NCBI GenBank assembly: GCA_965232605.1
Contig: CBDDQA010000006.1
Location: forward strand, 159,077-223,076
Length of the DNA: 64,000 nucleotides
Source: an uncultured Candidatus Binatia bacterium
Lineage (GTDB): Bacteria; Desulfobacterota; Binatia; Bin18
Direction: 5' to 3'
A program made the translations under genes and the position numbers. Positions 2,244 through 10,036 of the stretch are shown piece after piece; position 1 is the first letter of the stretch, and the number at the start of each line of letters is the position of its first letter. A model generated the notes under the pieces. It was given only the letters and a program-made list of their open reading frames with translations, was not told the origin of the DNA and made no database searches.

Positions 2244-2402
2244 AAGACTGATAGCGCCTATAAGAATACGCATTCAAGCAAGGGCAATAGAAGCATCTGA
2301 CTCTGCGAAATTCCGCGCCCACCTGCCCCGAATCCACCGTCGAAACAACATCCAGCATCGTCTATACTGGCCCGTTATCGTTTGGTTGTCGGAGGTGTAA
2401 CC

Positions 2403-2672
2403 GTGGAAATTTCCAAACCCCAGCGTATATGGACCGTAGCCGAAGCGAAGGCCCACCTGTCGGAAATTTTGCGGCTGGCCGAAGAGGAGGGGCCGCAGTA
2501 TATCGGTAAGAGAAACACTTTCGTCGTGGTGCCCAAACGACTGTGGCAAAAGCAATCGCCGCCGCGCAAGCCCTTTGGCCAGTGGCTCATTGAGAACGTA
2601 CCACGCGGTACCAATCTTGAGGTTTCGGACCGGCGCTCCAATCGCCCGATTCCCTTCATTGACATTGAGTAA
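2403..2672 (+). CDS. Orphan Phd/YefM-family antitoxin-like protein sitting between hsdS and hsdR. No cognate toxin is adjacent.
   Basis: The N-terminal motif VEISKPQRIWTVAEAKAHLSEILRLAEEEGPQYIGKRNTFVVVP resembles Phd/YefM antitoxins. A GGAGG RBS lies 6 nt upstream of the GTG at ~2403. The tracked ORF starts at the ATG at 2382. Confidence 0.5.
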   Translation: MEISKPQRIWTVAEAKAHLSEILRLAEEEGPQYIGKRNTFVVVPKRLWQKQSPPRKPFGQWLIENVPRGTNLEVSDRRSNRPIPFIDIE

Positions 2673-2765
2673 ATTGTTCAGCTATTTCCGGCCCCAGGCG
2701 GAAGATTTGGCCCGGCGCTTGTTGGAGCCACGCTGATTGAAACCCGTTGAGGACTGGCTGAAAAC

Positions 2766-5700
2766 ATGACCGCCTTCACCGAATCCACTGTCGAAGACGC
2801 CACCCTGACCTGGCTCGAAAGCCTCGGCTGGAACATCGCCCACGGGCCGGACACCGCGCCCGATACGCTGGGCGCGGAGCGTGGCGACTACGGAACGGTG
2901 GTGCTGGAACGGCGGCTGCGCGATGCTCTCGTCCGACTCAACCCCACCCTGCCGTCCGAAGCCCTGGACGACGCTTTTCGGAAGCTGACCCACCCGGAAG
3001 GACCAACGCTCGAAGCCCGTAACCGCGCCTTTCACCGGATGCTCGTGGATGGCGTAACGGTGGAGCGGCGTACAGATGACGGGACGGTCCGTGGGGCGCA
3101 GGCGCGAGTGATCGACTTTGATACGCCCGTCAATAACGACTGGCTGGCGGTCAATCAGTTTACGGTTGTTGAGAACAAGCACGAACGCCGGCCCGATGTG
3201 GTGCTGTTCGTCAATGGCCTGCCGCTCGGAGTGGTCGAACTCAAGAACCCGGCGGACGAAGACGCAACCATCTGGACCGCCTGGCAACAACTCCAGACCT
3301 ATAAGGCCGAACTGCCGACGCTGTTCAGCATGAACGCGGCCCTGTTGGTCTCGGACGGAGTTGAAGCGCGCATTGGCACGCTGACCGCCGGGCGGGAGTG
3401 GTTCAAGCCCTGGCGCACAATCTCGGGCGAAACCCTGGCCGACCCGCACCTGCCCCAATTGCAGGTCATGCTCGAAGGCGTGTGCCGACCGGGACGCTTT
3501 CTTTCGCTGATCCGCGACTTCATTGTGTTCGAGGATGACGGCAGCGGGGCATTGGTCAAGAAAATGGCCGGCTATCACCAGTTCCACGCGGTCAGGGTTG
3601 CCGTGACCGAGACGCTACGGGCTACAGAAGTGGAATTGGCGGAAGGCCGGATTTCCAGTGGGTTTGGCCGCTACGAGTCGGGCCGCAAACCGGGCGGCGA
3701 GCCCGGCGACCGGCGTATCGGCGTGGTGTGGCACACGCAGGGATCGGGCAAGAGCCTGACCATGGCCTTCTATGCCGGACGCATCATCCGTGAGCCGGCG
3801 ATGCAGAATCCGACCATCGTGATGCTGACCGACCGCAACGACCTGGACGACCAACTTTTCGGTACGTTCGCGCGTTGCCAGGACCTGTTGCGCCAGCCGC
3901 CGGTGCAAGCGGCAAGCCGGGCCGACCTGCGCGCCAAGCTCGCAGTCGAGTCGGGCGGCGTGGTCTTTACGACCATTCAGAAGTTCTTTCCTGATGAAGA
4001 GGGTGACCGACATCCGGTCCTGTCGGAGCGGCGCAATATCGTGGTCATTGCCGATGAGGCCCACCGCAGCCAGTACGACTTCATCGACGGCTATGCGCGG
4101 CATATGCGGGACGCCCTGCCCCACGCCTCGTTTGTCGGTTTCACCGGCACGCCGATTGAGTTGCAGGACGCCAACACCCGAGCCGTGTTTGGCGACTATA
4201 TCAGCATCTACGACATCCAGCGCGCGGTCGAGGACAAAGCGACCGTGCCGATCTATTACGAGAGTCGGCTGGCCAAACTGACGTTGGACGAGAACGAGCG
4301 GCCGAGGATCGATCCCGACTTCGAGGACGCAACCGAGGGCGAGGAGATCGCTCGTCAGGAAAGGCTCAAAACCAAATGGGCGCAACTCGAGGCGATTGTC
4401 GGCACGGAAAAGCGTGTGCAGCTCATCGCCCAGGATATCGTTACCCACTTCGAGCGGCGCCTGGAAGCGCTCGACGGCAAGGCCCTGGTCGTCTGCATGA
4501 GCCGGCGCATCTGTATCGAGCTGTACCGTGAACTGGTGCGGCTGCGCCCGGACTGGCATCGGGAGGAAGACGACCAGGGACAGATCAAAGTCGTGATGAC
4601 CGGTTCGGCATCCGACCCTCCCAACTGGCAGCCGCATATCCGCACCAAGTCGCAGCGCGAGGCCCTGGCAAAACGCTTCCGTTCCCCCGGCGACCCGCTC
4701 CGCCTGGTGCTGGTACGCGACATGTGGCTGACCGGCTTTGACGCGCCGAGCCTGCACACCATGTATGTGGACAAGCCCATGCGCGGCCACGGCCTGATGC
4801 AGGCCATCGCCAGGGTCAACCGGGTGTTCCGGGACAAGCCGGGCGGGCTGGTGGTGGACTACCTGGGGCTGGCGCAGGAATTGAAACGCGCGCTGACAAC
4901 CTACACCGAGAGCGGCGGCAGCGGAGGAACCGCATTCGACCAGGAGCAGGCGGTAGAGGTGATGATGGAGAAGTATGAGGTCTGTTGCGACCTGCTCCAC
5001 GGCTTTGACCGCTCGCAGTGGAGCACCGGCGCGCCAACGGAACGGCTGGCCCTGTTGCCGGCGGCGCAGGAACACATCCTGGCCCAGGAGAACGGCAAGG
5101 AGCGTTATCTTGTTGCCGTACGGGAGCTGTCTCAGGCATTTGCCCTGGCCGTCCCGCATGAAGCCGCGTTGCACATTCGGGACGAGGTCGCATTCTTTCA
5201 GGCCGTCCGGTCGGTCCTCGCCAAGCGAGCGCCCGGGGATACCCGTCCCGAGGAAGAGTTGGACCACGCGGTACGCCAGATCGTTTCGCGCGCCGTGGCC
5301 TCGGAAGGGGTGCTCGACATCTTCTCCGCCGCCGGGCTGGAGAAACCCGATATCTCGGTTCTGTCGGATGAATTCCTGGCCGAGGTGCGGGACATGCCGC
5401 AGCGCAACCTCGCGGTCGAACTGTTGCAGAAATTGTTGAAAGGTGAACTCGCCGTCCGCCGCCGGAAAAACCTTGTCCAGGCACGGTCGTTCGCCGAAAT
5501 GCTGGAACACACCCTGCGGCGCTATCAGAACCGGGCCGTTGAAGCCGCGCAGGTGATAGAAGAACTGATTCAACTCGCCCAGGAGTTGCGCGAGGCCAGC
5601 GCGCGGGGCGAAAAACTCGGCCTGTCGGAAGACGAGGTCGCGTTCTATGACGCGCTCGAAACAAATGACAGTGCGGTTCAGGTGCTCGGCGATGAAACCC

Positions 5701-5906
5701 TGCGCGATATCGCCCGTGAATTGGTGCAAACCGTGCGTAATAACGTCACCATTGACTGGACGCGGCGCGAGAATGTCCGCGCCAACCTGCGCCGCCTGGT
5801 TAAGCGCATTCTGCGCAAGCACGGTTATCCGCCTGACAAGCAGGAACGAGCGACCCGGACCGTACTGGAACAGGCCGAGGTGCTGTCCGCCGGCTGGGCG
5901 GTTTAA
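2766..5906 (+). CDS. hsdR: Type I restriction enzyme R subunit (HsdR), an SF2 helicase/endonuclease.
   Basis: Canonical HsdR N-terminus ([29 protein letters not shown]), Walker A motif GSGKSLT, DEAH box [11 protein letters not shown]. Length 1046 aa. Confidence 0.95.
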
Positions 5907-5934
5907 CCGGAGGCCGGTCGTCTCAAGAAAGTTC

Positions 5935-6033
5935 TCCTTGACCCCCGGATATAAACGCGCGATGGTGCCGAAACTGACACAGGCGGGGAGAAGCCAATGA
6001 CCACGGTCGGCACGGGCAAGATGGTCGGCGCCC
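5935..6033. repeat. Copy 1 of a ~99-bp direct repeat (~92% identical to 6998-7096). The repeat unit is the promoter/RBS/first 12 codons of the coxL-like gene.
   Basis: ccttgacccccggatataaacgcgcgatggtgcc...agccaATGaccacggtcggcacgggcaagatggtcggcgcc is present at both loci. Confidence 0.8.
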
Positions 6034-6090
6034 TGGCCTGGCTTGAAAGCCTCGGCTGGCGTATCGCTCACAGTTTCGATATCGCTTGGT
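6034..6090 (+). pseudogene. Fragment homologous to the 5' end of hsdR (LAWLESLGWRIAH), fused in frame to the duplicated coxL start. Forms a chimeric 31-codon ORF (5998-6090).
   Basis: Nucleotide similarity to hsdR positions ~2803-2850. Confidence 0.6.
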
Positions 6091-6127
6091 AACGCGGTCC
6101 GCTTGAAGTGAGGACAACAGGGTCATA

Positions 6128-6520
6128 TCACGCGGCAAGAACGTTGATATCTCGGCACTCGATCAGGCGCTGGTCCGCCGTGACAAGGGTCAGATCGAAT
6201 GTCTTTGCAGTGGCGGCGATGAGACGGTCCGCGGGGTCGCGATGCGGAAGATTGATGGACGCGCTCCCCAGCACCACATCCATCGTGAGGGGAATTTCTG
6301 AGACCGGACTTGCGGACATGGCCTTGCGCAACCATCTCGGCCCGTCCGGTTCCAGGACAAGCCGCCCCCGCTCGGCCAGCAGCAGAGTCTCCCACAAGCT
6401 GATAGACGCAAGGCGTAGCGCCGTCCCGCGCGCGGTGAGGGTGTCACGCACTGTGATTGAGAGCCGGTCCGGGTCAAGCAGACTCCAGAGCCAAATATGC
6501 GTATCAAGAAGTAGCGACAT
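6128..6520 (-). CDS. vapC: PIN-domain toxin VapC.
   Basis: LLDTHIWLW...D...TAD PIN acidic-residue pattern. 130 aa. Start overlaps the vapB stop. Confidence 0.9.
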   Translation of the reverse strand: MSLLLDTHIWLWSLLDPDRLSITVRDTLTARGTALRLASISLWETLLLAERGRLVLEPDGPRWLRKAMSASPVSEIPLTMDVVLGSASINLPHRDPADRLIAATAKTFDLTLVTADQRLIECRDINVLAA

Positions 6521-6781
6521 TTACGGGCTTGTCTTCCCAGGGCTATCGACCAAAACCTCCCAGTCGTCCGGCGCGGCGGCGGGCTCGACGAGGTCGCCGA
6601 TGATGGCGCCCCGTCTCCGCATGGCACCCAACCAGGCGTCGGAGGGAGCCTTTGTCGGAGGGATGACCTCGGCGACCGGCTTGCCAAAACGGGTTATCAG
6701 GACCGGCTGTCCCGTTCTGCCAACACGGTCAAGGACGGCCAGGCAGGTGGCCTTGAATTTCGAAATTTGAATTTCTTCCAT
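6521..6781 (-). CDS. vapB: Phd/YefM-type antitoxin VapB.
   Basis: MEEIQISKFKATCLAVLDRVGRTGQPVLITRFGKPVAEVIPP. 86 aa, abutting vapC. The longer tracked ORF (6521-7060) is an artefactual upstream extension. Confidence 0.8.
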   Translation of the reverse strand: MEEIQISKFKATCLAVLDRVGRTGQPVLITRFGKPVAEVIPPTKAPSDAWLGAMRRRGAIIGDLVEPAAAPDDWEVLVDSPGKTSP

Positions 6782-6852
6782 GATCGAATCGTACCATGGT
6801 ATCAGACCATGGTCTATTACTTCGGTCATCAGCATTATGAGGGCTGGTTGAA

Positions 6853-6990
6853 CACATGACCGGATTTGCCGAATCCACCGTCGAAACCGCCGCCCTAGCC
6901 TGGCTCGAAAATCTCCGCCCACGAACTGGACCATGCCCGATACGCTAGGCGCAGAGCGTGGTGAATACGGAATGGTGGTGCTGGAACGAC
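6853..6990 (+). pseudogene. Decayed second copy of the hsdR 5' end (MTGFAESTVETAALAWLENL...[17 protein letters not shown]) carrying internal deletions.
   Basis: Alignable by eye to hsdR nt ~2766-2910. No intact downstream ORF. Confidence 0.65.
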
Positions 6991-6997
6991 CATGAGC

Positions 6998-7096
6998 GCC
7001 TTGACCCCCGGATATAAACGCGCGATGGTGCCGGAACTGCCACAGTCGGAGGGAAGCCAATGACCACGGTCGGCACGGGCAAAATGGTCGGCGCCC
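6998..7096. repeat. Copy 2 of the ~99-bp direct repeat. This is the functional coxL-like promoter/RBS/start.
   Basis: See copy 1 (5935-6033). Confidence 0.8.
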
Positions 7097-9441
7097 AGGT
7101 GAAACGGGTCGAAGACCCGCGGGTGCTGTTGGGTCACAGCCAGTATGTCGATGATATCCACCTGCCCGGCGCCCTCGGGGTCGCGTTTGTCCGCAGCCCC
7201 TACCCGCATGCCCGGCTGCTCACGGTCGATGTCAGCGCCGCTCAAGCGTCTCCAGGGGTAGAGGCGGTCTTGACCGGGGCGGATGTGACCCAGGCGATCC
7301 GCCCCCTGCGCGTGGAGTATGATCCGGCCAAGGCCCCGAAACATAAACCGTGCAACTGGTCGGTGTTAGCCCAGGGCAAGGTTCGCTTCGTGGGAGAACC
7401 GGTGGCGGTCGTTGTCGCCTCGGACCGCTACACGGCAGAGGATGCCGCGGCTGGCGTGACAGTCGAGTATGAGCCCCTGGAGGTTGTGCGCGATATCGAA
7501 CAGGCCATGCAGCCGGACGCCCCGCTCATCCATGAGGAATGGGGCGACAATCTCATGCAGACGGTGGACATGCAGGCCGGCGCGATTGCCCAGGCTTTTC
7601 AGGCGGCAGATTGCATCGTGGCCGAGCGCTTTGCGACCGGTCGGCATGTGGCGCTGCCCATGGAAGCCCGTGGCTGTCTGGCCCACTATGAGCCGGCTTC
7701 AGGCTCCCTGACACTGTGGTCCTCGACCCAGGTGCCGCATCTGATGCGGGCTCACCTGGCCCGCCTGCTCGACTTTCCCGAGCACCATATTCGGGTCATC
7801 GCCCCGGATGTCGGCGGGGGGTTCGGACCCAAAGCCTACGTCTATCCCGAGGAAGTCCTGCTGACCTTTCTTGCCAAGCATATCGGCCGCCCGGTCAAGT
7901 GGATCGAAGACCGACGCGAAAACCTGTCCGCCTCGACCTTGCAGGCCAAGCAGCAAGTCGTGCAGGCGGAACTCGCCCTGACCAGGGAGGGGACTATCCT
8001 GGGGGTGAGGGGGCGTTTTATCTGCGACGTGGGGGCCTACTCGGCCTATCCGTGGGGCTCTGCCCTGGAGGCCGGCATGGCGGCTTCGGCCTTCCCAGGA
8101 GGCCCCTATAAGGTCCCGGCCTTCCGCTGCGAGGCCCTGTCGGTTGTGACTAACAAGACCACGAGTGGGGCCTATCGTGGGGTGGGTTTGCCGGTCAGCA
8201 TTCTGGTCATGGAACGCCTGCTCGACCTGGGGGCACAGAAACTGGGGCTCGACCCGGTCGAGCTGCGCCTGCGTAATATGATCCGCAAGGAGGAACATCC
8301 CTATCAGACCATCACCGGGGTTGAGATCGAAAGCGGCAGCCACCGGGAGGCTCTGCAAAAGGCCCTGGGCATGCTCGACTACCCGGCTTTCCGGGCCGAG
8401 CAGCAACAGGCGAGACAACATGGGCGCTACCTCGGCGTTGGCCTGGGCTGTTATGTCGAGAGCTCGTCCTACAGCTATCGCAGTTTTGAGCCGGTCGGCA
8501 TCACCTGGGGCGGCTATGAATCGGCTACCGTACGCATAGACGCAAACGGCAAGGTCACCGTCCTGGTCGGCACCCACTCGCACGGCCAGGGCCATGAGAC
8601 GACGTTTGCCCAGGTTGCGGCGGACGAGCTGGGTGTGCCCGTGGCTGACGTCAGGGTGATTCAGGGAGATACCACGACCGTTCCGCACGGCTGGGGAACG
8701 TGGGCCAGCCGCAGTGCCGTGCTCGGCGGCGGCGCCATTATTCAGGCGTCGAGCCAGTTGCGGGAGAAAATTCTGCGCACGGCCTCACGCCTGAGCGAAG
8801 TGCCGCAAGATGACCTTGAACTGGCCGAGGGATTAGTCCGGCGCAAGACGGATAGCCTGGTACTCATGCCGTTGCAGGACATCGCTCACCTGCTGGTTGT
8901 CCAGGCACCGGCAGGTCTACCGGAAGACGAAGAACCGGGTTTGGAGGCAACTGCGCACTACACCCCACCGCCCTGGACCCACGCCAACGCCACGGTTGTG
9001 GCGACGGTCGAGGTGGATATCGAAACCGGCTCCGTCCGGCTGCTGCGGCTGATTGTGGTCGAAGACTGCGGCACAATAATCAACCCGTTGGTGGTTGACG
9101 GACAGATCCAGGGCGGCGTGGCTCAGGGCATCGGATCGGCCCTGTACGAGCAGACGGTGTACGACGAGAACGGCCAACTGCTGACGGGGACGCTGATGGA
9201 CTATCTGGCTCCCACCGCGGTGGACGTTCCTCGGGTCGAAATCGGACATATCGAAACCCCAGCGCCGAACACGCCGCGCGGCATCAAGGGCATGGGCGAA
9301 GGCGGAGCCATTTCACCGCCGGCAGCCATAGCCAACGCCGTGGCGGACGCCCTGGCACCGTTGGGGGTACGGGTCAACGAGATTCCGCTCACCCCGGAGC
9401 GGGTTCTGGTCCTGATCGACCAGGCACGCCAGGGGGCGTGA
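7060..9441 (+). CDS. Xanthine dehydrogenase family molybdopterin-binding large subunit (CoxL/aerobic CO dehydrogenase-like). No adjacent medium or small subunits.
   Basis: N-terminus MTTVGTGKMVGAQVKRVEDPRVLLG and C-terminal GMGEGG motif. 793 aa. Confidence 0.9.
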   Translation: MTTVGTGKMVGAQVKRVEDPRVLLGHSQYVDDIHLPGALGVAFVRSPYPHARLLTVDVSAAQASPGVEAVLTGADVTQAIRPLRVEYDPAKAPKHKPCNWSVLAQGKVRFVGEPVAVVVASDRYTAEDAAAGVTVEYEPLEVVRDIEQAMQPDAPLIHEEWGDNLMQTVDMQAGAIAQAFQAADCIVAERFATGRHVALPMEARGCLAHYEPASGSLTLWSSTQVPHLMRAHLARLLDFPEHHIRVIAPDVGGGFGPKAYVYPEEVLLTFLAKHIGRPVKWIEDRRENLSASTLQAKQQVVQAELALTREGTILGVRGRFICDVGAYSAYPWGSALEAGMAASAFPGGPYKVPAFRCEALSVVTNKTTSGAYRGVGLPVSILVMERLLDLGAQKLGLDPVELRLRNMIRKEEHPYQTITGVEIESGSHREALQKALGMLDYPAFRAEQQQARQHGRYLGVGLGCYVESSSYSYRSFEPVGITWGGYESATVRIDANGKVTVLVGTHSHGQGHETTFAQVAADELGVPVADVRVIQGDTTTVPHGWGTWASRSAVLGGGAIIQASSQLREKILRTASRLSEVPQDDLELAEGLVRRKTDSLVLMPLQDIAHLLVVQAPAGLPEDEEPGLEATAHYTPPPWTHANATVVATVEVDIETGSVRLLRLIVVEDCGTIINPLVVDGQIQGGVAQGIGSALYEQTVYDENGQLLTGTLMDYLAPTAVDVPRVEIGHIETPAPNTPRGIKGMGEGGAISPPAAIANAVADALAPLGVRVNEIPLTPERVLVLIDQARQGA

Positions 9442-9484
9442 GACCGGCAAAACAGAGGAGCAGCCTCGGGTCTGAGTCCGCTCA

Positions 9485-10036
9485 TCACCTGCCGGTCTTC
9501 ATCTTGAAGCGGAAGTCGCAGTACTGGGCGCCCTTCATGATCGTTTGCGTCCGGGTCATGGTGACCTCAGGACCGCCCACCGCTTCGATATCCACGTCCA
9601 TCTCACACGTCAGCAGCGCGCCCAGCTCGGGTTCTCCCAGTTGCCGGAAGAAATCCGCGTAGCGGCAACTGGTGATATTGAACTCCCAGGCCTCTGGCTC
9701 CCGCTTGAGCGTCTCAAGGTCTACATCACCGCCGACCCGTTTCAACATGGCCTCATTGATGGCGTCCCATTTCTGCCGGGGGCTACCGGAGAGCTGGCCG
9801 CCGATTTCCTGGTAAAGCTTGCCCGACCACTCCCGCAGGGCCTGGCTGGCAATCTGGTTCGCCCGCTCCTCGCCCAACTCGGCCCGAAAGGCGCGGAGCA
9901 GAGGCACGAGCACCTGGGCTTGAATCTGGACCTTTTCAAGCAGGGAGAGACCGATCTTGCCAAACGCCGGCGCAAAAATATCCGGAGTAGCGTCCTCTTG
10001 CTGCTCGTTCGCCTTCAGATCATCGGTACTCGCCAT
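9485..10036 (-). CDS. L-2-amino-thiazoline-4-carboxylic acid (ATC) hydrolase-family protein, divergent from Rieske gene 1.
   Basis: C-terminal pattern ITSCRYADFFRQLGEPELGALLTCEMDVDIEAV...TRTQTIMKGAQYCDFRF. AGGAGG RBS before the ATG at 10036. The tracked ORF has a spurious 5' extension. Confidence 0.6.
   Translation of the reverse strand: MASTDDLKANEQQEDATPDIFAPAFGKIGLSLLEKVQIQAQVLVPLLRAFRAELGEERANQIASQALREWSGKLYQEIGGQLSGSPRQKWDAINEAMLKRVGGDVDLETLKREPEAWEFNITSCRYADFFRQLGEPELGALLTCEMDVDIEAVGGPEVTMTRTQTIMKGAQYCDFRFKMKTGR

Follow-up and report, generated by a model that had tools for sequence, protein, structure and literature searches.

Introduction

Defence genes embedded in type I restriction-modification (RM) operons are an established arrangement, exemplified by TgvAB of VPI-2 in Vibrio cholerae (PMC11411939) and treated by Payne et al. 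(2024; bioRxiv 10.1101/2024.01.29.577857). Here, we analyse the junction between a type I RM island and a metabolic gene in a 64,000-nucleotide stretch of DNA (hereafter the window, numbered from its first letter) from an uncultured Candidatus Binatia bacterium (contig CBDDQA010000006.1, positions 159,077 to 223,076), where a toxin-antitoxin (TA) pair is enclosed by fragments of the restriction gene hsdR and by a direct repeat of the start of a coxL-like gene. In line with the embedded systems, the island family found here carries variable cassettes between hsdS and hsdR (KAP NTPase, ThsB_TIR, Phd-PIN, DarTG, RhuM, GmrSD_N and DUF4143), and the vapBC block of a related locus, L086, occupies that same position. 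Unlike them, the block in the window lies downstream of hsdR, within the 5' end of the neighbouring metabolic gene, and is therefore not an embedded cassette in the established sense.

The minimal mobile elements of Neisseria are comparable, in that strains reportedly swap cassettes at a fixed chromosomal site through recombination in conserved flanks and without mobility genes of the cassettes' own; they are not known to leave duplicated gene fragments, whereas in the window one conserved flank, a gene 5' end, is duplicated. Campbell-type integration and islands bounded by attL and attR likewise place direct repeats of a target 5' end on both sides of the insert and regenerate an intact target gene. 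The window differs from these in having no integrase, a left repeat that is native and contiguous with hsdR, and insert ends made of truncated gene fragments. Homology-facilitated illegitimate recombination (HFIR), reportedly found in transformable bacteria, classically results in an insertion together with a deletion, in contrast to the 101-nt target duplication of the window. In break-induced replication that is mediated by microhomology (MMBIR; Hastings et al. 2009, PMC2621351), a template switch back behind the break yields a duplication, as is found here. With HFIR and MMBIR alike, the locus shares foreign or ectopic DNA joined at GC-rich microhomologies of 3-9 nt beside homology, without a dedicated recombinase.

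Results

The insertion is derived and its target was duplicated in place

The resident hsdR gene (2766-5906, plus strand) is full length and encodes the 1046-aa type I restriction subunit of the island. Its stop codon is followed, after 29 nt, by A1 (5936-6036), the left copy of a direct repeat that returns as A2 at 6999-7099 with an offset of 1063. The repeat is 101 nt long and 93% identical, with mismatches at 7 of 101 positions. The leading 35 nt are the same in both copies, and none of 100 shuffles of the window gave such a match; the similarity claimed in the original prediction thus holds on formal alignment. Homology to the related locus L081 begins slightly further left, at 5932 in A1 and 6997 in A2, giving outer limits of 5932-6036 and 6997-7099 (both plus strand). 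A1 comprises a conserved upstream block, the 5' untranslated region (5'UTR) and codons 1 to 12-13 of the coxL-like gene; A2 serves the intact coxL-like gene and holds its 5'UTR and start. Between them lie, in this order, the hsdR fragment R', vapC, a Phd/YefM antitoxin and a second hsdR fragment, R''. All the elements of the cassette as it had been described, flanked by repeat A and by hsdR fragments, are present, with their coordinates slightly corrected.

Protein searches yielded five informative loci from relatives. In L081 and L084, whose coxL-like proteins share 94% and 88% amino acid identity with that of the window, a divergent hydantoinase A gene (hydA) lies directly upstream of the coxL-like gene and the RM island is absent. 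In L087 and L089, identified by hsdR homologues at 93% and 92% amino acid identity, the island sits between hydA and the coxL-like gene, and the latter follows hsdR after 90 nt, with the 29-nt spacer and a single A. These two loci, which lack vapBC at the junction, are empty sites. Their alignments with the window are uninterrupted (window 2767-6036 against L087 10002-13277, 90.3% identity; window 2664-6036 against L089 3260-6617, 90.1%) and cover hsdR, then the spacer, then A1 as far as codon 13 of the coxL-like gene, so A1 is contiguous with hsdR just as the single A is in these relatives. The spacer (5907-5931, plus strand) is likewise collinear with both and represents the native right end of the island, with the same order of hsdR, spacer and A. 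From 6997/6999 to 9448, the window aligns with L087 and L089 again, starting from their same single A, at 93-94% identity. Since both empty sites hold only one A, the insertion in the window is derived: 1,063 bp, made up of 962 new bases (6037-6998) and a 101-nt target duplication.

The same comparison bears out the earlier proposal that the RM island was joined directly to the coxL upstream region, as hydA adjoins the gene in L081 and L084 and the island lies between the two in L087, L089 and the window. The L087 island has taken the place of the entire hydA-coxL intergenic region; this replacement begins at the hydA ATG and ends at about -66/-69 of the coxL-like gene. The 29-nt spacer was considered as leftover ancestral intergenic DNA and rejected, there being no convincing similarity beyond TTCTC. 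A scan of GTDB genomes with the coxL-like protein returned only relatives at or below 71% identity, too distant to serve as an empty site, and a scan of JGI metagenomes with a degenerate A pattern found nothing. In L082 (coxL-like protein at 88% amino acid identity) other genes are found upstream, including a 135-aa Phage_integrase fragment at 4282-4689; strains therefore differ in what lies upstream of this gene.

Both copies of A carry CCCCCGG where all six relatives (L081-L084, L087 and L089) have CCTCCAA-like sequence. These shared, lineage-specific substitutions show that both copies are native and that the duplication arose in place. An origin of A2 and the coxL-like gene from an island-free donor was rejected, since informative sites place the whole gene with L087 and L089 without a mosaic. 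Private substitutions number 4-5 in A1 and one in A2; together with a synonymous divergence (dS) of 0.20-0.22 between the coxL-like genes of the window and those of L087 and L089, this dates the event after the split from those strains, and not recently.

The block derives from another allele of the island

The left part of the insert (6030-6443), which spans R' and two-thirds of vapC from its 3' side, shares 92.5% identity with L086 4431-4846. In that locus, an hsdR remnant starts with its ATG, immediately behind a KAP NTPase gene. The right part, the antitoxin and R'' (6516-6988), matches L086 9653-10146 at 83.6%, and there the antitoxin (minus strand) is divergently adjacent to a full hsdR (plus strand). 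As the adjacencies R'-vapC and antitoxin-hsdR are both native in L086, an allele with the order remnant, vapC, antitoxin, hsdR exists elsewhere. The inserted block comes from another allele of the same type I RM island and, judging from this collinearity, is a slice of it from remnant codon 13 to hsdR codon ~50-55. Thus, where a vapBC module had been thought to insert by itself, a pre-assembled 962-bp block entered. The idea that two type I RM loci recombined, with a duplicated junction, agrees with the collinearity between the block and the L086 island allele; the joints are microhomologies, and not homologous crossovers between copies of hsdR.

R' (6026-6122, plus strand) is a remnant of hsdR codons ~13-45. 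Its positions 6026-6071 are 83% identical to hsdR 2798-2843, and its extension to ~6122, just short of the vapC stop, follows from collinearity with L086. R'' (6838-6998, plus strand) is a decayed hsdR 5' end reaching from -18 to about codon 49-55, which is natively paired with the divergent antitoxin according to the hsdR and L086 alignments. Here, 6838-6988 matches hsdR -18 to +146 at 80-88% identity and the frame is disrupted by deletions of 11 nt and 2 nt, in agreement with the second, decayed fragment predicted downstream of the TA pair. R'' differs from the 5' end of the resident hsdR by ~17% and A1 from A2 by 7%, which fits copying from another allele and not from the hsdR gene 3 kb upstream.

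The left novel junction, J1 (6026-6036, plus strand), joins A at +39 to R' at hsdR codon 13. The two repeat families overlap at this point, with a microhomology of CGGCGCCC versus CGCCGCCC that agrees at 7 of 8 positions and is perfect in its final four nucleotides, GCCC. The joint creates a 31-codon open reading frame (ORF; 5997-6092, plus strand) in which coxL-like codons 1-12 continue into hsdR codons 13-31, with the translation MTTVGTGKMVGA followed by LAWLESLGWRIAHSFDIAW and a stop. The fusion of A1 to an hsdR fragment is in frame at codon 12, as had been noted, while the hsdR piece corresponds to codons ~13-45 and not to the gene start; the fusion ORF is probably a by-product. The right junction, J2 (6989-6999, plus strand), joins R'' to A2 at about -66 of the coxL-like gene, as placed by the L086 alignment and by the start of L081, L087 and L089 homology at 6997-6999. 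Its microhomology is at most 3-4 nt (CCT). Ten nucleotides of filler, ACCATGAGCG (6989-6998), resemble hsdR codons 52-54 of an L086-type allele after a small deletion, a likeness that is only suggestive of such an origin. A short match without long homology is thus found at J1 and J2 alike.

No transposase or integrase is encoded among the scanned ORFs, which covered the first 16 kb of the window and the complete L087 island, and a tRNA scan and an Rfam search at the locus gave no matches, in keeping with the earlier view that no transposon took part. We rejected the insertion of an insertion sequence or transposon on the additional grounds that no inverted repeats flank 6037-6998 and that the duplication measures 101 nt, and rejected an integrase-type genomic island in view of the missing recombinase and tRNA and of the island DNA on both sides of A1. 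A broader form of site-specific integration would invoke an integrase that moved a small integrative element, or tandem islands, with A1 and A2 as the att sites. This would account for direct repeats flanking foreign DNA at a gene 5' end with the target gene restored, and the Phage_integrase fragment of L082 does lie ~3.3 kb upstream of the coxL-like orthologue. Against it stand the lack of any integrase or tRNA in the regions just named, the native hsdR-spacer-A sequence of A1, and an interval that carries the TA pair only and ends in truncated hsdR fragments at microhomologies; we rate it the least probable of all the readings discussed here.

An assembly artefact, either a chimera of two co-occurring strains or a mis-resolved repeat, deserves attention in an uncultured metagenome assembly, particularly as no other record was found to contain J1 or J2. 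Nevertheless, the copies of A differ at 7 of 101 positions and yet share lineage-specific changes, a 93%-identical repeat is unlike a collapsed or duplicated assembly repeat, and an assembler would not be misled by a microhomology of only 8 nt. In addition, the four flanks all find independent support in L085, L086, L087 and L089, and proteins identical to the hsdR and vapC products of the window are recorded on a single 1.8-Mb contig, presumably the source contig. Exact look-ups of the coxL-like and vapC proteins, and of P0121, a protein 100% identical to the vapC product, matched no record. An artefact is thus very improbable.

A single template switch as the most likely mechanism

The locus is a genuine but fairly ordinary scar, best explained by illegitimate recombination, and neither a mobile element nor a designed regulatory unit; to this explanation, including the route set out below, we give about even weight. 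The most likely route is a single replicative template switch, of the HFIR or MMBIR type, with foreign or ectopic island DNA as the template. In the ancestor, hydA would have been followed by the type I RM island, ending in hsdR and the 29-nt spacer, and then by A and the coxL-like gene, as in L087 and L089, while the donor would have been a different allele of the same RM-island family with a TA pair embedded ahead of hsdR. A 962-bp block formed by R' (from codon 13), vapC, the antitoxin and the 5' end of the donor hsdR would then have been copied or pasted into the first coxL-like codons. Mechanistically, a 3' end at coxL-like +39 (codon 12) would prime on remnant codon 13 via the 8-nt microhomology of J1 and copy ~960 nt; at J2, synthesis would return to the chromosome ~105 nt back, at -66, the left edge of the conserved upstream block. 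The segment from -66 to +39 would be duplicated in this way, the downstream gene would retain its control region and start, and no dedicated recombinase would be required.

In this account, the repeat persists because, short and only 93% identical, it is a poor substrate for recombination; the TA pair may also penalise its loss. The position of J2 near the island boundary could reflect a shared constraint, in which both events had to spare the upstream block and stability is greatest for the shortest repeat. The same survivorship of short repeats would explain why the hsdR remnants described below are all shorter than 200 nt and diverged.

Several points weigh against this route. The two novel junctions are known from this contig only, and no donor or template allele turned up in this lineage; the searches gave no near-identical donor, only the template-like allele of L086. 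J2 offers little more than its 3-4 nt of microhomology and 10 nt of uncertain filler, and it falls within ~3 nt of the island's own right boundary, which is explained by shared constraint and survivorship only. The private changes of A1 cluster in the 5'UTR (5 in 19 nt), unlike uniform neutral decay. Finally, a multi-step route of tandem duplication and then deletion yields the same end product.

That multi-step route, completed by allelic replacement, is the main rival, and we hold it possible at a tentative level. It would start from an ancestor with the order R'-vapCB-hsdR-spacer-A-coxL, in which a unit of ~4.3 kb, beginning at codon 13 of R' and ending at codon 13 of the coxL-like gene, was doubled, making J1. 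A ~3-kb deletion, from about codon 55 of the second hsdR to the end of the spacer, would make J2, and the R'-vapCB and hsdR 5' end of the first copy would then be replaced by homologous recombination with another allele. J1 does have the exact form of a tandem-duplication joint at a microhomology, in which the end of one unit (b) meets the beginning of the next (a), and both copies of A are native to the lineage. Moreover, hsdR alleles have clearly been exchanged (dS of 0.30-0.33, versus 0.20-0.22 for the neighbour gene), and later deletions such as those in R'' are typical of decay. However, at least three events are needed, the resident hsdR has no vapBC upstream and is preceded by an orphan Phd and a different leader, R'' is ~17% away from the resident hsdR when the copies of A are only 7% apart, and the end of the deletion within ~3 nt of the island boundary would be due to chance.

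In a Campbell-type integration, a circle carrying A (-66 to +39) joined to R' and continuing to R'' would enter by a single homologous crossover in A. The homology-insert-homology product is exactly what a single crossover gives, and the hsdR remnants at other loci fit circles with a short homology arm. The difficulty is that the circle must already hold both J1 and J2, as well as an A allele with the lineage-specific CCCCCGG, so that it would have formed first in the same population; such circles are hypothetical, and we find this account improbable. The template switch, which would produce both joints in one step, stays the preferred reading.

A recurrent footprint ahead of hsdR genes

To place the scar within its family, we surveyed 80 metagenome loci with hsdR homologues at 72-81% amino acid identity, plus L086, L087 and L089 (83 loci); HsdR was tiled into 60-residue pieces, which were searched against these loci with tblastn. 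Extra copies of residues 1-60 were found 13 times, compared with a single extra copy for the other 16 tiles together. Twelve of the 13 extra 5' fragments lie upstream of embedded cassettes and of a full hsdR on the same strand. The fragments start at or near the ATG, end at +49 to +195 nt and share 63-90% identity with the full-length copy at their own locus. Loci with such an upstream fragment are L086, L091, L107, L120, L137, L138, L139, L144, L146, L150 and L158, together with the window itself at 2294-2344. This last segment, R''' (plus strand), is a possible third remnant (about -20 to +30) upstream of an orphan Phd-like ORF. It is a weak blastn match (26 nt at 85% identity to hsdR 2770-2795; E 0.003-0.01) in a region collinear with L087 9227-9531.

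The genes between remnant and hsdR encode an AlbA_2/HATPase_c_4 regulator, AAA_14/DUF4143, DarT with a Macro-domain (DarG-like) protein, a four-helix 23S_rRNA_IVP protein, RhuM (twice), a deaminase, GmrSD_N and a metallophosphoesterase, and are thus of the same kinds as those reported embedded in RM operons. About one seventh of the loci in the hsdR family examined here have a short extra copy of the gene's start ahead of embedded defence or TA genes. From their arrangement, the 5' remnants look like a recurrent footprint of cassette insertion, and the interval from A1 to A2 repeats this footprint, a gene 5' remnant followed by inserted DNA and the intact gene, at the island's neighbour gene. 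A term search of Payne et al. (2024), extended to no broader literature, returned no 5'-remnant footprint and no insertion mechanism.

The toxin-antitoxin pair

The toxin gene vapC (6128-6520, minus strand; 130 aa) encodes a PIN-domain protein (PF01850, E 1.3e-13, 52.1 bits versus a cut-off of 23.6) with the acidic residues D6, E44, D95/D98 and D116 present; no NCBIfam match was found for it. The 86-aa antitoxin (6521-6781, minus strand) lies immediately upstream in the same operon, its stop (6521-6523) abutting the vapC start at 6520. It belongs to the Phd/YefM family (PF02604, E 1.6e-8, 34.6 versus 29.8; TIGR01552, 26.3 versus 20.8), so the earlier naming of a minus-strand vapC and vapB was right for the toxin and the strand, and the antitoxin is not a classical VapB. 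The ratio of nonsynonymous to synonymous divergence (dN/dS) is 0.24 for vapC, compared with the L085 copy, and 0.33 for the antitoxin; the pair is intact and, by this measure, under purifying selection, with a predicted toxin-antitoxin function. Just upstream of the antitoxin start, at 6793-6813, lie two copies of an 8-bp palindrome, ACCATGGT, 5 nt apart and partly conserved in L086, which are likely the autoregulatory operator of the pair.

The TA unit (6128-6832, 705 nt) is conserved at 91% in L085, whose surroundings have no similarity to the window, and the vapC homologues of L085 and L088 have unrelated TA or metabolic genes as neighbours. These unrelated contexts indicate that the 705-nt cassette is portable, and nothing more. 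In L086, vapC is truncated by a ~4.8-kb block (4846-9653) encoding HMUDK_hel, MazG_C, DCD and DUF1828 proteins, with a second decayed hsdR 5' remnant inside it at 8854-8946. This block may be a nucleotide-targeting defence module nested in the TA cassette.

The resident restriction genes

The resident HsdR scores 580 bits against TIGR00348 (cut-off 284) and contains the Pfam domains HSDR_N, SWI2_SNF2 and T1RH-like_C. Its dN/dS versus relatives is 0.11-0.15. The dS of hsdR to L087 and L089 (0.30-0.33) exceeds that of the adjoining coxL-like gene (7060-9441; 0.20-0.22), yet the gene is under purifying selection, which suggests allelic exchange of hsdR within the island at a fixed site. Upstream of it, an orphan Phd/YefM-like antitoxin ORF (2382-2672, plus strand) scores just below the PF02604 gathering cut-off (28.3 versus 29.8) and above that of TIGR01552 (30.6 versus 20.8). 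L087 has a Phd and PIN pair (9310-10004) where the window (2382-2766) keeps the Phd-like ORF without a PIN partner, and ~140 nt that the window has in common with L089 stand in place of ~470 nt of L087. The orphan antitoxin ORF thus adjoins an hsdR that, from its sequence, appears active.

The hsdS gene lies within the window at 51-2243, and hsdM falls beyond it but is present in L087. The 730-aa hsdS ORF unites in one frame an N-terminal nucleotidyltransferase, target-recognition domain 1, a DUF559 (Vsr-like endonuclease) segment and target-recognition domain 2, and L086 shows the same architecture. The DUF559 segment is bordered by 70-nt inverted repeats (1034-1103 and 1521-1590; 74% complementary) with hairpins inside, and has the look of a small element that entered hsdS without breaking its frame.

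The coxL-like gene and its upstream block

The gene restored by A2 (7060-9441, plus strand; 793 aa) encodes a xanthine dehydrogenase-family molybdopterin-binding subunit according to Pfam and falls below every NCBIfam equivalog cut-off. Its designation as coxL, the large subunit of CO dehydrogenase, is not sustained: it scores 618 versus 991 bits for TIGR02416 and 655 versus 950 for NF040766, and no coxM or coxS lies adjacent. Its neighbours encode an ATC hydrolase and a Rieske oxygenase, joined in relatives by a luciferase-like gene, and its dN/dS is 0.07-0.10.

In six related loci (L081-L084, L087 and L089), a block of ~35 nt upstream of the coxL-like gene is kept and is more conserved than the adjacent 5'UTR. 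In the window this block, CCTTGACCnCCnnATATAAACGCGCGATGGTG (5936-5970 and 6999-7033), starts with CCTTGACC. Given this conservation, it is probably a promoter plus a regulator site; a sigma-70 scan found no canonical promoter. Of the duplicated 'coxL promoter' proposed earlier, the duplication of the upstream block stands, and its promoter function is suggested by the conservation of 35 nt alone. The window holds two copies of the block, one of which is directed antisense at vapBC. Separately, six hsdR homologues (P0251, P0268, P0280, P0282, P0287 and P0290) start with MTTVT..., three residues longer than usual, and their first four residues are the same as the coxL-like start (MTTV...); this is possibly a coincidence or a small start-codon duplication.

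Discussion

The history of the locus can be read as two successive acquisitions: an RM island inserted between hydA and the coxL-like gene, and later a TA-bearing piece of a sister allele pasted in with the gene left unbroken. As an event, the scar is of a known kind, to which it adds a new case, and the recurrent 5'-remnant footprint is the more useful by-product. The latter offers a testable model, in which illegitimate or single-crossover insertion is anchored on a conserved gene 5' end and only short, diverged repeats survive.

A more general proposal, to which we attach rather low confidence, is a recombinase-free shuttle in which embedded defence and TA genes travel with a short copy of the hsdR 5' end and have here spilled over to the start of the neighbour gene. 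Cassettes would loop out between the copies and re-integrate into any related hsdR by RecA-dependent recombination. If this were true, the second coxL-like upstream block, running antisense into vapBC, could couple expression of the TA pair to the regulator of the metabolic gene.

For the island family, the footprint provides a simple sequence signature for finding embedded cassettes. As the same type of scar recurs ahead of related hsdR genes, it marks the swapping of such cassettes without a transposase.

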